Shown: one piece after another, positions 21,748 to 27,204 of the stretch
How positions within the stretch are numbered: position 1 is the first letter of the stretch
Layout: each line of letters opens with the position of its first letter
Assembly (NCBI GenBank): GCA_028284495.1
Contig: JANQRP010000015.1
Span: 6,466 to 70,465 of the forward strand
DNA from: Longimicrobiales bacterium
GTDB taxonomy: Bacteria; Gemmatimonadota; Gemmatimonadetes; Longimicrobiales; Gaopeijiaceae
Length of the DNA stretch: 64,000 bases
Reading direction: 5' to 3'
Position numbers and translations under genes: made by a program
The notes under the pieces: model-generated
Told to the model about the DNA's origin: nothing
Seen by the model: the letters and a program-made list of their open reading frames with translations, nothing else
The model's database searches: none

Positions 21748-23310
21748 ATGAATCGACCCGACATGCTCGAAAGGCTCGACGAACGCACCGACCCGTGGGA
21801 CATGGTCGTGGTCGGCGGCGGCGCCACCGGCGTGGGTGTGGCGGTGGACGCCGCCGCGCGTGGATACGACGTGGCCCTGTTCGAGGCCTGTGACTTCGGC
21901 AAGGGAACGTCGTCGCGGAGCACCAAGCTCGTGCACGGCGGGGTCCGGTACCTGCGACAGGGCAACGTGCCGCTCGTCATGGAGGCCCTCCGGGAGCGGG
22001 GGATCCTCCGGCGCAACGCGCCCCACCTCGTGAACGAGCTGCCCTTCGTCGTGCCGAACTACGACTGGTGGGAGGCACCCTTCTACGGCATCGGCCTGAA
22101 GGTGTACGACGCGCTCGCGGGGAAGTACGGATTCGGGTCGTCCCGGCGCCTCGGCCTCGACGAGACGATCGAGCGCCTTCCGACCATCGAGCGCGACGGG
22201 CTTCGCGGCGGTGTGGAGTACCACGACGGCCAGTTCGACGACACGCGTCTGCTCGTGCACCTCGCCATCACGGCGGCGGAGCAGGGAGCGGTGCTGGTCA
22301 ACCACGCGCCGGTCGAGGCGCTGACGAAGGCCGCCGACGGGTTCGTTTCAGGGGTCAGGGTCCGGGACGTCGAGACGGGGGACGTCCGCGACGTTCCGGC
22401 TCGCTCCGTGATCAACGCCACCGGCGTCTTCACGGACTCCGTCCGCCGGATGGACCGGCCCGGGGCCGCGTCGATGATCCGGCCGAGCCAGGGCATCCAC
22501 CTCGTACTCGATCGGCGGTTCCACCCTGGAGACGCCGCGATCATGGTACCGCACACCGACGACGGACGGGTGCTCTTCGCCGTGCCGTGGCACGGGAAGG
22601 TGCTGGTCGGCACCACGGACACCCCCGTCGAGGTCGCCGACCCGGAACCGCGACCCTTCGACGAAGAGGTCGAGTACGTGCTCCGCCACGCCGCCCGCTA
22701 CCTCGAGGAGGATCCCGGCATCGACGACGTGCTGTCGGCCTTCGCGGGGCTGCGGCCGCTCGTCGGGTCGGGGGACGACGAGGATACGTCGGCCCTCTCG
22801 CGGGACCACACGCTCCAGGTGTCGCGATCCGGGCTCGTGACGATCACCGGGGGCAAGTGGACGACCTACCGGAAGATGGCCGAGGACACCGTCGATCATG
22901 CGGCGGTCCTCGCCGGCGTCGAGGTGCGGCCCTGCACGACGAAGGAACTCCAGATCCACGGGGCCCACGCGCACGCCGACCGATTCGGGCACCTCTCCGT
23001 GTACGGAACCGACGCGCTGCTGGTCGAGGGCCTCGCGGAGGAGGAGGCCGGCGGGTCGGACCCGCTCGACCCCGCGCTGCCCTACATCGAGGCAGAGGTG
23101 CGCTGGGCGGCGCGCGAGGAGATGGCACGGACCGTCGAGGACGTCCTGTCACGGCGCACGCGGGCGCTGCTGCTCGACGCCCGCGCCGCGATGCGGGCGG
23201 CGCCCCGCGTGGCCGAGATCCTCGCGGACGAACTGGGAAGGGACGCGTCCTGGAGGAGCGACCAGGTTCGGGAATTCGAGGGGATCGCGCGGGGTTACGT
23301 CGTAGCGTGA
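21748..23310 (+). CDS. glpD: FAD-dependent glycerol-3-phosphate dehydrogenase
   Basis: [60 protein letters not shown]. Confidence 0.92.
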
Positions 23311-23365: not shown

Positions 23366-24088
23366 TCAGGGCAGAATGCCCTCGCGGTGCAGCGCGTGGG
23401 TGTATCGCCGGTACTCCGGCTCGTTGGCCACGTAGTCGCGGGCCCACGTCTGGAAGTCCGGGAGTGGGAGCCGACGCTCGATGAACTCGACCACCAGCAT
23501 GGCGAGCTGGTGCTTGTCGCCCGCGGCGAAGTCGATCCCCTCGATGTCGTCGATGATCCGGCCCACCGCGATCTCGAAGTCGTCCGGGTGTACCAGCTGG
23601 ATGAAGTGGCAGACCTGGTCGAGCCGATAGGATGCGTACAGCGAACGCATCTCCTCGAGGTCGGTCTGCTCCGACGTGGGCGGCACCTCGAAGTCCGCGA
23701 TGCGCGTCGCGTTCTCCGTCAGGAGGTCGTGGAACCACCGCTTCAGGAACGGGGATCGATCATCCTCGCGCGTCCGTGTGTGGATGGCCGAATCGAGGAG
23801 ACCCGAGAGCAGCGGACGCCCCAGTTCACGAGCCTTCCGGGCGATCTGGTTTTCCTCGCTCTCGATGAAGATGTCACCGGTGCGCACCTCACCCGCGTCC
23901 GCGTCCGTTCCGGAGAGCCGGAAGGCGAAGTGACCCTTCCACGCACGGTCGGCGGGGTCGAGGAAGGTGACCAGGAAGCATGCCCACTGCTCGCCCTCCC
24001 GTTCCAGGAAGCCGACGGACCGCCGCCGCAGGTGCAGGCGGCGCTCGGGGAGCGGCAGGTCGGAGGGAACGGAGAGTGGTTCGATCAC
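23366..24088 (-). CDS. Hypothetical protein, unnamed domains B + A
   Basis: Coding-like composition; shares motifs with 25137..25754 and 26472..26816 (see findings). Confidence 0.75.
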   Translation of the reverse strand: MIEPLSVPSDLPLPERRLHLRRRSVGFLEREGEQWACFLVTFLDPADRAWKGHFAFRLSGTDADAGEVRTGDIFIESEENQIARKARELGRPLLSGLLDSAIHTRTREDDRSPFLKRWFHDLLTENATRIADFEVPPTSEQTDLEEMRSLYASYRLDQVCHFIQLVHPDDFEIAVGRIIDDIEGIDFAAGDKHQLAMLVVEFIERRLPLPDFQTWARDYVANEPEYRRYTHALHREGILP

Positions 24089-24240
24089 CCTGGCAACTTC
24101 GGCGGGGAGGTCGCCTCGGGCAAGCGGGCGAAATCCTTGCTCGCGCGGGAAACAGATGATTATTCTGACAATCCCCCTGCGGACTTCGCCGCGGGGGCAG
24201 AGGCGGCCGGAATCGACCGGCCCGACGCCCGGCGAACCCG

Positions 24241-25134
24241 ATGATCAACTCGTCCCTGCACCTGGATGCGCGTCCGGAGGCGATGGAGGACGTACCCGGC
24301 GTGTGCGAGCTGCCGCTCACGCGCGCGATCGTCCAGTATCGGGACGTGCACGAAGTCGAGAATGCGGGGGGCCGCATCCGCGACATCGGGCTCGCGCTCG
24401 TGCTGGAAGGACGGTACGCCGCGTCGGCGGACGTCGTGGATCTGGGCAGCGCGGACGTGAAGCAGCTGGACCTGAGCCACGAGCTCGTGGTCCTCGACTG
24501 GGCCTACGAGCCGACCCTCGAGCACGCGGCGGATCTGCTCCGCGACGCGGCGTCGCACGGGCGGGACGGCGAGCTGGAGCGATTCTGCTTCCGGGTCGCA
24601 CTGCGCGCCATCGAGAGGGTCGGGTTCTCGCCGCTGACGCGACCCACGCTGCTCCGTATCGGCTTCCGTGACGTGTGCCGTGACCTCGACCTGCACGAGG
24701 CCACGGCGGTGCGGCTCGCTCTCGGGGGCAGCCGGGTCGTCCGGATTCACATGGACTACGACGCGAACGCTCTGACCGTCCGGACGCCGACCGCGCACCG
24801 CGATCCTTCGCTCGAAACCGCCCTCGCGGCCGCGTTTCCGGCGTGGGACGTGCGAAGAATCGTTCCGCCGTCCGTCGCCCAGGCGGGCGGGTACCAGGTC
24901 CGGCTTCCGCTGTCGCTCTCGCTCGGTGAGTTGCGCGACCAGGTGACCCGCGTCCGGACCGGGCTGATTCGGCTCATCGGCCGGTTCGAGCCGGCCCGGA
25001 TGCGTCAGGTGGAGCAGCACGTGGACACCTTCGGCGAGCGGGAAACGCTCGCGCGCATCCGCGACACCGGAGAGGTGGCCTGCACCGTGTCGATCGGCCG
25101 CGGCACGGCTCACGGCGACGACACCGTGCACTGA
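24241..25134 (+). CDS. Hypothetical protein
   Basis: 297-aa ORF with normal codon bias, divergent from 23366..24088, 2 nt before the next gene; no family recognised. Confidence 0.7.
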   Translation: MINSSLHLDARPEAMEDVPGVCELPLTRAIVQYRDVHEVENAGGRIRDIGLALVLEGRYAASADVVDLGSADVKQLDLSHELVVLDWAYEPTLEHAADLLRDAASHGRDGELERFCFRVALRAIERVGFSPLTRPTLLRIGFRDVCRDLDLHEATAVRLALGGSRVVRIHMDYDANALTVRTPTAHRDPSLETALAAAFPAWDVRRIVPPSVAQAGGYQVRLPLSLSLGELRDQVTRVRTGLIRLIGRFEPARMRQVEQHVDTFGERETLARIRDTGEVACTVSIGRGTAHGDDTVH

Positions 25135-25136
25135 CG

Positions 25137-25754
25137 ATGACGCCCGATCTGTCCTGGCCGTCCACCCTTTCCCCGTCCGACGTCGGCATCGCCGAGGTCG
25201 GACCCGTCGCGATCGGCGGCGAGAACCCGGCGCTCCGATCACGCTACCAGGCGTATCGGGTCCAGCAGGGTCGCGACCTCGTGGCGCTTCTTCCCCGAGA
25301 GGGGCTGCGTGCTCTGCTCCGCGAGATGCACGATGCGGGGACCGCGATCGACTTCATGTCGGCGGACGGGTTCGAGGCGCTCGCACACCGCTGCGCCGAC
25401 CTCCTTCCGCTCCCGCCGTTCGACGTCTGGGCACGCGACTTCGCGAGCAACCGGGCTGCGTACGGAGGACCCGAGTCTCCGCCCCTCGCTCCCGCACGCG
25501 CGCGGGAGGAGGCGGTGACCGTCGCCGTGGTCGAGTTCCTGAGCGACCACGGAGAGGAGTGGGTCGCGTCGTTGGAGGTCCGCGAGATCGATCTGCGATG
25601 GACGGGCACAGTCCGGTTCCACCGACCCACCTCGGCGGCCACGTGTCGAACGGGGCCGATTCTCCGCGAGGCGGACCCCGAGAGCGTGCGCGCCCGCTTC
25701 GCCGGATTCGATCGAACGACGCTCTCGGCGCTCCTCCGGTCCGCACTTCCCTAG
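25137..25754 (+). CDS. Hypothetical protein, unnamed domains A + B
   Basis: LRSRYQAYRVQQ...LPLPPFDVWARDFASNRAAY followed by GEEW...WTG...RTGPI. Confidence 0.75.
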   Translation: MTPDLSWPSTLSPSDVGIAEVGPVAIGGENPALRSRYQAYRVQQGRDLVALLPREGLRALLREMHDAGTAIDFMSADGFEALAHRCADLLPLPPFDVWARDFASNRAAYGGPESPPLAPARAREEAVTVAVVEFLSDHGEEWVASLEVREIDLRWTGTVRFHRPTSAATCRTGPILREADPESVRARFAGFDRTTLSALLRSALP

Positions 25755-26123
25755 GATCGGACTTTTCCGAAAATTCTCTTCCACGTCGCCGGCGTCCTCA
25801 CCGACCCGGGACGTGCCTTCCGTCCCGCGTTCCCGCGCGATCCGGCCTTCCGGAGGCGTGGCACACGCGTGCTCGGCGCGGATCCGATTCGGCGAAACTT
25901 GCCAAATCATCGAACGCTGTAACCTGTTGGGGGACATGAGCGTACGGTTTTCCTACGGGCTCGCCTGGACCAGTGGGAGCGGGTTGCGTCCGGGGCGGCG
26001 TGCGGATAGAGTCGATCTCCGCGCCACGGCGGCGCGATCGACGGAGCAGGAGGAAGGCCGGAGGCCGGAGCTGCACGACGTCGGAACCTGGGCATCAACG
26101 GTCAATCCGGGAGGAATCCGAGC

Positions 26124-26339
26124 ATGTGGGAGACGCGTTCCGTCCAACTCAACGTCCGCCTTCCGCGAGAGATTGCGGACCAGGCGGAAGAGGTCCAGGC
26201 GTCCGATCCGGAGTTCCTCAGCCGGGTCGTCATGTACGGCCTCACGCGTCGCTCCATCTATCGCCACCTCCGGGACGCCCCGGCCACCGCCGGGCCCTCT
26301 CTGGAAGCCGGGTCGCTCCCGGCCTCACCCGGGACCTGA
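26124..26339 (+). CDS. Small ribbon-helix-helix-like protein
   Basis: Strong gggagga RBS; SVQLNVRLP beta-strand followed by two predicted helices. The RHH fold is inferred. Confidence 0.65.
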   Translation: MWETRSVQLNVRLPREIADQAEEVQASDPEFLSRVVMYGLTRRSIYRHLRDAPATAGPSLEAGSLPASPGT

Positions 26340-26471
26340 CGGGCGCACTGCGGGTACCCGCGAACAGCTGCCCGACGACGATCGGGTTCCTGACGCCGGG
26401 CGGGTCGACGGAGTTCCCGACCGAGCGACCGGAGCGCATCGAGGCTCCGGTGCCTTCGAACCGCGAGCGGG

Positions 26472-26816
26472 GTGTTCGTGAACGAGCGGTCCAGCGAGCC
26501 GCCGGAGATGGGCTCGGACGAGGGACTCGACCTTCTGCGGGCGAAGTACCTCGACTACTGCTCTGCGCAGCTCGCCGATCTCCTGCTCTACCTCTCTCCC
26601 GACGAGATCTTCGTTCTGTCGGAGAAGATCGCGAGCCGTGATCCGGAGGGTCGCTCCCGCGGGTACGGGCGCATCGTCCGTGTCGCGACCGAGTGGCTCG
26701 CCAACCGCGTCTCGCTCCCGCCGTTCGAGGTCTGGCTCGAGGACTACCGGGCGAATCCGGAGCGGTACGACACCTATCTCATGGGACTCTGGGAAGAGCC
26801 TGGCGTCGAACGGTAG
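26472..26816 (+). CDS. Hypothetical protein, unnamed domain A only
   Basis: LRAKYLDYCSAQ...VSLPPFEVWLEDYRANPERY; start could be GTG 26478. Confidence 0.75.
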   Translation: MFVNERSSEPPEMGSDEGLDLLRAKYLDYCSAQLADLLLYLSPDEIFVLSEKIASRDPEGRSRGYGRIVRVATEWLANRVSLPPFEVWLEDYRANPERYDTYLMGLWEEPGVER

Positions 26817-26847: not shown

Positions 26848-27204
26848 CTAGAAGGGCAGCCCGTCGTCCGAGGCTTCGGGCGGCGCCGAGGTCGGCCACG
26901 GCTCGTCCGCCGGCGGTTGAGGTGCACCGGTGCCCTGATCGCGATCGATGCGCCAGGCCTTCACGTCGGTGTACCAGCGCCCGTTGTACTCACGGCTCTG
27001 GATGTCGATGGAGGCCGTCAGCGTCTCGCCCTCCTGAACGCCGAACTGGTCGATGTTGTCGCCCCACTGGACGATGCAGATCTGCTTGGGGTACTGCCCC
27101 TGCGTCTCGAGGACGAACTCCTGCTTCCGCCAGGGGCCGTTGCGGCCCTCTCCGGACTGCTCCTCGAGAATCTGGACGACCTTGCCGGTGAGCTTCAGAT
27201 CCAT
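26848..27204 (-). CDS. DUF3127-like OB-fold protein with SSB-like acidic tail
   Basis: GPWRKQEFVLET...YPKQICI..WGDNID...SREYNGRWYTDVKAWRI; ends DDGLPF. Confidence 0.8.
   Translation of the reverse strand: MDLKLTGKVVQILEEQSGEGRNGPWRKQEFVLETQGQYPKQICIVQWGDNIDQFGVQEGETLTASIDIQSREYNGRWYTDVKAWRIDRDQGTGAPQPPADEPWPTSAPPEASDDGLPF

Follow-up and report, generated by a model that had tools for sequence, protein, structure and literature searches.

Paralogous proteins that carry the same domains in swapped order are a general phenomenon rather than a family, small regulators of the ribbon-helix-helix (RHH) type (Arc/MetJ/CopG; Arc, PF03869, and RHH_1) form a described class, and the type III secretion (T3S) class I chaperones share an ExsC/YbjN-like fold. 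ExsC works in a partner-switching regulatory cascade. Here, we compare these systems with a five-gene cluster at positions 23366–26816 of a 64,000-nucleotide stretch (the window) of contig JANQRP010000015.1 from a bacterium of the order Longimicrobiales (phylum Gemmatimonadota; assembly GCA_028284495.1). The cluster encodes a protein in which a domain that we designate B is followed by a domain that we designate A (B-A), a protein of 297 amino acids (aa), a protein with the two domains in the opposite order (A-B), a small protein of 71 aa, and a protein with domain A alone (A-only).

The cluster resembles swapped-order paralogue sets in having B-A and A-B in adjacent genes together with a single-domain copy, but both of its modules are themselves undescribed and confined to these proteins. 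It also resembles phylum-specific 'signature' proteins, in that its products belong to one phylum, occur in every sampled genome and are annotated as hypothetical; here, however, they make up a five-gene unit with internal paralogy and conserved regulatory DNA of its own. The small protein is like RHH regulators in its size, in a strand that ends in LP and is followed by two predicted helices, and in the position of its gene at the head of a probable operon with a conserved dyad upstream. Unlike those regulators, it has no Pfam match at threshold, and its near-invariance across the phylum is unusual for an autoregulator. AlphaFold2 (AF2) models the 297-aa protein as an alpha/beta sandwich of two layers, a weak likeness to the class I chaperones; it differs in having two halves in one chain, in the lack of secretion genes around it and in matching no Pfam or PDB sequence. 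No description of the cluster was found in a literature search that included Gemmatimonadetes signature proteins.

Two domains shared in swapped order

Three of the cluster proteins are paralogues built from two previously undescribed domains in the layouts B-A, A-B and A alone: B-A (240 aa; 23366–24088, minus strand, divergent from the gene of the 297-aa protein), A-B (205 aa; 25137–25754, plus strand) and A-only (114 aa; 26472–26816, plus strand). An initial annotation, made from the letters of the window and its open reading frames (ORFs), had proposed that domain A is common to all three and domain B to the first two. All five ORFs are present at the coordinates used here, and the motif strings that it quoted are found in their translations. 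In BLASTP comparisons, domain A was recovered between B-A and A-B (E = 7e-10, 28 per cent identity across 104 aa), between B-A and A-only (E = 9e-10), and between A-B and A-only (E = 4e-5, limited to the C-terminal LPPFxVW part). Domain B matched between residues 25–102 of B-A, where it is N-terminal, and residues 132–204 of A-B, where it is C-terminal (E = 7e-5, 31 per cent identity); the order is thus swapped.

Hidden Markov models (HMMs) built from homologues of each protein family extend these matches. Specifically, the B-A family HMM found two separate domains, in swapped order, in A-B (independent E-values of 1e-13 and 7e-8) and matched A-only at 3e-12, and the A-B family HMM reciprocally matched B-A (1e-12 and 1.5e-9) and A-only (2e-12). 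An HMM of domain A from the B-A family matched 108 of the 110 members of the A-B family. Across the three families, domain A follows the motif LRxRYxxYRxxQ...LLPLPPFxVWxxD, in which Y..Y, L-P, F and W are invariant in the alignment. Judged by these comparisons, the domain sharing is far beyond chance, and both the common domain A and the order-swapped domain B of the initial annotation are borne out.

In B-A, domain B spans residues ~18–112 (nucleotides 23753–24037) and domain A residues ~137–240 (23369–23680); in A-B, domain A lies at residues ~25–115 (25209–25481) and domain B at residues ~128–205 (25518–25751); and in A-only, domain A lies at residues ~16–107 (26517–26792). Structure prediction with AF2 and subsequent Foldseek comparison covered B-A and the 297-aa protein. 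In the B-A model (pLDDT 77), domain B is predicted as a beta-meander (strands at 21–58 and 74–76) followed by helices to residue ~132, and domain A as a five-helix bundle at 144–234.

Searches of Pfam, NCBIfam, PADLOC and PHROGs returned no match for B-A, the 297-aa protein, A-B or A-only, and PADLOC returned none for any of the five proteins at E ≤ 1. When 107 and 91 aligned family members were scanned against Pfam one by one, only scattered chance matches appeared, and profile searches of PDB sequences found no matches for the large cluster proteins. The B-A model had no Foldseek match at E ≤ 0.001 in the PDB and no significant match in BFVD. As far as these tools can see, domains A and B and the 297-aa protein are placed in no known family by the sequence and fold comparisons run here, in agreement with the initial annotation, which had recognized no family for either domain.

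A domain-A profile made from all three families and compared with 1.84 billion representative proteins gave 196 matches at E ≤ 1e-3. In these, domain A is N-terminal (proteins of ~190–220 aa), C-terminal (~215–266 aa) or stands alone (~100–140 aa). The outliers are a B-A protein with a long linker (P0464), two frameshifted products (P0474 and P0452) and a chimeric 1-kb contig (P0489); as candidate Rosetta-stone fusions of domain A, all four were rejected as uninformative. In P0489, a JGI contig of 1,054 nt with the IMG name 'Tim44 family', the final ~55 residues of domain A are attached to half of a Tim44 domain (Pfam E = 1.3e-18); the contig is most likely an assembly chimera from a metagenome rather than a genuine fusion. 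As it is the lone Tim44 link, and as NTF2-like Foldseek matches all have E ≥ 0.5, a Tim44-like or NTF2-like identity of domain B was also rejected.

Distribution, gene order and conservation

We detected 617 homologues of B-A, all unnamed and from Gemmatimonadota or Longimicrobiales, 110 homologues of A-B, and at least 996 of the 297-aa protein; B-A is encoded in 226 species-representative genomes. All named sources of B-A, A-B and 297-aa homologues are Gemmatimonadota, Gemmatimonadales or Longimicrobiales, and every one of these homologues is called a 'hypothetical protein' and lacks a precomputed Pfam domain. One locus labelled Gammaproteobacteria (L034) is probably mis-binned, as its 5-kb contig and a Gemmatimonadetes bin (L058) come from a single study.

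Gene order was compared across 80 related genome loci, with the identities of flanking genes checked by Pfam and counts restricted to loci with enough flanking sequence. The order is recF, enoyl-CoA hydratase, ssb, A-only, small protein, A-B, 297-aa protein, B-A, (glpD) and 3-hydroxyacyl-CoA dehydrogenase. The 297-aa gene adjoins B-A in all 74 loci that could be scored, and the small-protein and A-only genes are each present in 57 of 57, so that linkage of the genes across Gemmatimonadota is confirmed. The gene for A-B is found in 47 of the 57 loci and is lost or decayed in the other 10 (L026, L028, L033, L041, L043, L065, L066, L071, L073 and L079), in which the stretch from the 297-aa stop codon to the small-protein start is too short for this gene and, in two cases, retains domain-B fragments. 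Because the other four genes persist in these loci, the order-swapped paralogue A-B is dispensable. Insertions (glpD, DUF3127 and other DNA) are located only at the borders of the cluster, where gaps reach 3.6 kb between ssb and A-only and 4.1 kb between B-A and the dehydrogenase gene; spacing inside the cluster is tight.

In one common set of loci, median identities to the proteins of the window are 75 per cent for the small protein, 74 per cent for ssb, 58 per cent for recF, 56 per cent for the 297-aa protein, 55 per cent for B-A, 52 per cent for A-only and 39 per cent for A-B, the least conserved member; purifying selection on the cluster is comparable to that on recF and ssb in the same genomes. 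A tblastn search of 72,556 plasmids with the small-protein core and the 297-aa protein gave no matches, PHROGs and BFVD gave no significant match, no integrase or repeat context was seen, and no GC anomaly was detected at the cluster within a window of ~70 per cent GC. The locus belongs to the vertically inherited core and is neither mobile nor accessory. The initial annotation had put it forward as a candidate 'new system', which stands with respect to undescribed families and linked genes and fails in the mobile or accessory sense, since the locus is conserved about as well as recF and ssb.

Remaining proteins and conserved intergenic DNA

The 297-aa protein (24241–25134, plus strand) is the best-modelled large protein of the cluster (AF2 pLDDT 84, pTM 0.78), with a predicted fold of two alpha/beta halves, each of five strands plus helices. 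Residues 15–48 (24283–24384), an N-terminal segment ahead of the two halves, are rich in invariant positions (M15, D17, V18, G20, C22, T27, R28, Q32, Y33, R34, E38, G43, G44, R45 and D48), yet are modelled with low confidence, which would fit a segment that folds only upon a partner. The best Foldseek match in the PDB has E = 0.013, with nothing at E ≤ 0.001. Single halves are weakly similar to the T3S chaperones ExsC, SigE and SpcU (probability 0.7–0.84, TM-score ~0.4, E ≥ 0.05); for ExsC (3kxy), E ranges from 0.05 to 0.24, probability from 0.57 to 0.84 and target TM-score from 0.38 to 0.42, and for SigE (1k3s) E = 0.13, none of these E-values being significant. By analogy, ExsC-type partner switching would suit a module of paralogous binding domains. 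Both an internal duplication in the 297-aa protein and a relationship of its halves to domain B were rejected (hhalign probability <1 per cent in each case).

The small protein (26124–26339, plus strand) has a near-invariant 52-aa core, MWETRSVQLNVRLPRxIAxQAEEVQxxDPEFLSRVVLYGLTRRSIYRHLR, with a median identity of 81 per cent and near-invariance from DPEFLSRVVLYGLTRRSIYRHLR on, followed by a variable, acidic, proline-rich tail. Its sequence reads as an N-terminal strand of alternating hydrophobic residues (VQLNVRLP) and two predicted helices, and its C-terminal GLTRRSIYRHLR resembles a helix-turn-helix (HTH) recognition helix. Among 22 members searched, Arc scored 12.6 bits in one (cut-off 20.4; E = 0.13), Reb1_MybAD reached E ~ 0.1 in 11, and HTH_20 reached E = 0.039 in one, all below threshold; neither the RHH_1 and CopG models nor PDB sequences matched. 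It is a probable DNA-binding protein, for which an RHH and a three-helix HTH fold are equally possible. The RHH-like character given to it in the initial annotation hence remains plausible: the strand-then-two-helices pattern is there, whereas no RHH model scores above threshold and no PDB sequence matches.

The A-B start codon is located 2 nt past the stop codon of the 297-aa gene, and because of this short gap the two genes are probably co-transcribed. The A-only gene begins 132 nt downstream of the small-protein gene and is probably in the same transcription unit. This layout is compatible with three transcription units, namely B-A, 297-aa plus A-B, and small protein plus A-only. All five products are acidic (pI 4.5–5.8) and have negative mean hydropathy, as in soluble proteins.

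The initial annotation had singled out the two intergenic regions of the cluster as places where the small protein might bind, and conserved operator-like DNA is indeed found in both. In the divergent region between B-A and the 297-aa gene (24089–24240), a 52-locus alignment revealed conserved motifs, among them a promoter-like TTGCTC-N18-TATTCT element on the plus strand at 24137–24166, with the box AACAGATGATT inside it at 24151–24161; a GGCAAGC block at 24119–24125, which on the minus strand forms a CTTGCC −35-like element toward B-A; and the element CTTGCG...AAACAGATGGTTATCGT. The box, AACA[GA][GAT]TG[GA][TA]T, has 58 matches in the two cluster intergenic regions (58 kb) and 2 in the remaining 948 kb, and nearly always has the sense orientation of the 297-aa and small-protein genes. 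Because the AACAnnTGGTT box is common to both regions, it suggests a common regulator for the two plus-strand units.

The spacer between A-B and the small-protein gene (25755–26123, plus strand; 369 nt in the window) is 364–383 nt long in 43 of 57 loci. Shortly after the A-B stop codon is a palindrome or hairpin with the consensus TTTTTTGTAAAAAA (T6-N2-A6; window copy CTTTTCCGAAAA at 25762–25773). Also conserved are a block, GGAACAnnTGGnTTT (GGAACAnnTGG), and a 25-bp dyad with the consensus TAAGTnnTTG-N5-CAAnnACTTA, of which the window has a degenerate 27-nt copy, GTAACCTGTTGGGGGACATGAGCGTAC, at 25919–25945. In both the palindrome and the dyad, the symmetric bases are kept without compensatory changes, as would be expected of DNA bound by a protein; for the palindrome, this pattern fits less well with an RNA stem. 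Further downstream, a promoter-like TTGCG-N17-19-TAnnnT occurs in 69 of 72 loci, with the end of the −10 element 112–123 nt before the ATG in 64; its window counterpart, TTGCGT-N17-TAGAGT at 25984–26012, lies 111 nt ahead of the ATG, and a ribosome-binding site, GGGAGGA, is located at 26109–26115. The spacer motifs are found almost exclusively in this spacer. The blocks are AT-rich within genomes of otherwise ~70 per cent GC, as seen in loci L003–L080.

Other candidate elements were sought and rejected. Neither the dyad nor the T6/A6 palindrome was found in the divergent region, which shares the AACAnnTGG box alone. A structured leader or riboswitch in the ~110-nt 5' untranslated region of the small-protein gene was not supported, as RNAalifold produced no consensus structure and z-scores from folding of single sequences centred on −0.1. 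No Rfam family, whether of tRNA, rRNA or riboswitch type, reached its gathering score across the 64-kb window, and none did so in eight orthologous loci; the only matches were at chance level (mir-3661, E 0.57; Chlorobi-1, E 0.035, inside the A-B coding region).

The only sequencing runs found for the window are of coral metagenome DNA. For one orthologous locus (L030, 3500–9500, from an anammox bioreactor genome), runs labelled as metatranscriptomes contain contigs over the five genes and the spacer, at depths similar to those of the neighbouring ssb and hydratase genes, which lends weak support to expression of the cluster.

Interpretation and alternatives

We favour, with a probability of about 0.5, a lineage-specific core cluster of Gemmatimonadota that is inherited vertically and encodes a multi-protein module of the cytoplasm, including a small DNA-binding protein as its regulator; far less confidence attaches to any specific biochemical output, be it enzymatic, structural or regulatory. 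Under this interpretation, the five proteins would act jointly as one cytoplasmic complex or regulatory circuit. Domains A and B would serve as protein–protein contact modules, making like-with-like or alternative contacts, and A-only and the order-swapped A-B may compete with or complement B-A. The initial annotation had similarly proposed that domain A might mediate hetero-oligomerization or bind a common ligand, and that the small protein might regulate the module's own expression. The 297-aa protein would be the conserved core or scaffold, and the small protein may bind the conserved dyad and/or the AACAnnTGGTT box, coupling the expression of the units. A more specific version, which we regard as tentative and on balance doubtful, is a phylum-specific, possibly essential machine or partner-switching circuit on two new folds, in which B-A, A-B and A-only would either bridge the same surfaces of the 297-aa core or compete for them, while the small protein would read out the resulting state at the operators.

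Several observations weigh against the module interpretation. The flanking housekeeping genes are also syntenic (ssb in 56 of 57 loci and recF in 55 of 57), and because neighbours are nearly as syntenic as the cluster itself, a functional link gains little support from gene order alone. The fold and DNA binding of the small protein are tentative, its Pfam matches all being below threshold and PDB sequences giving none, and the arrangement of the two domains within B-A is uncertain in the AF2 model (pTM 0.47). The window's own spacer is the most GC-rich and most diverged, with its dyad degenerate and the AACAnnTGG box missing from it. When the window was scanned for the sigma-70 consensus, no promoter emerged, and A-B was followed by no more than a weak AT hairpin; promoter function of the conserved motifs is therefore inferred from conservation only. 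Finally, the L030 contigs are unstranded, and DNA carry-over is possible.

Synteny of this extent gives some room to the idea that the five genes are functionally unrelated, being neighbours by phylum-wide collinearity, with the A/B paralogy left by old tandem duplications. Indeed, recF, enoyl-CoA hydratase, ssb and 3-hydroxyacyl-CoA dehydrogenase have unrelated roles and are almost as strictly syntenic, and the cluster is split into three probable transcription units on two strands. We nevertheless consider unrelated genes an unlikely explanation: insertions and variable gaps occur at the cluster borders and none inside, the box common to both cluster intergenic regions is found almost nowhere else in 1 Mb, and the domains shared among three of the five proteins have no other occurrence in 1.84 billion proteins. 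What ties the five genes together is their paralogy, the DNA motif that they share and the restriction of insertions to the borders.

The company of ssb, which adjoins A-only in 56 of 57 loci, and of recF and gyrB within 4 kb, raises the alternative that the cluster forms an accessory complex acting with these three in DNA replication, repair or nucleoid organization; a small, near-invariant, DNA-binding-like protein and five acidic, cytoplasmic products would suit such a role. This reading is improbable in our view, because ssb and the cluster are convergent, with gaps of varying size or extra genes between them, an enoyl-CoA hydratase gene intervenes between ssb and recF, and the cluster proteins gave no match to an OB fold, a nuclease, an ATPase or any other domain of DNA metabolism. 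Moreover, cumulative GC skew increases steadily along the window; there is therefore no origin here, and the AT-rich spacer was rejected as one. A toxin–antitoxin, anti-phage defence or mobile accessory module, with the RHH-like protein as antitoxin or regulator, finds a superficial likeness in the small RHH-like gene ahead of the gene of a small acidic protein. It is close to refuted by the PADLOC, PHROGs, plasmid, Pfam and NCBIfam searches, all without matches, by the identical chromosomal position and housekeeping-level conservation in every sampled genome, and by DNA that shows neither a GC anomaly nor an integrase or repeat context.

Soils, sediments, wastewater and host-associated communities all harbour abundant Gemmatimonadota, yet very little is known of the biology specific to this lineage. 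Since every sampled member keeps the cluster under selection as strong as that on recF and ssb, the cluster probably serves a function central to the phylum. Its proteins also add modelled domains without structural relatives, confidently so for domain B and the 297-aa fold and less confidently for domain A, and the swapped-order paralogues offer a natural case of how domain permutation rewires a complex. The availability of cultured Gemmatimonas strains makes direct testing feasible.

With regard to the immediate neighbourhood, Pfam confirms the ssb and DUF3127 genes that the initial annotation had placed beside the cluster. This neighbourhood carries little weight, because the whole region is syntenic phylum-wide. 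The DUF3127 gene (26848–27204, minus strand) stands between ssb and the cluster in the window and its closest relative, L001, only (1 of 57 loci), and glpD (21748–23310), at the other border, is likewise a lineage-specific insertion.

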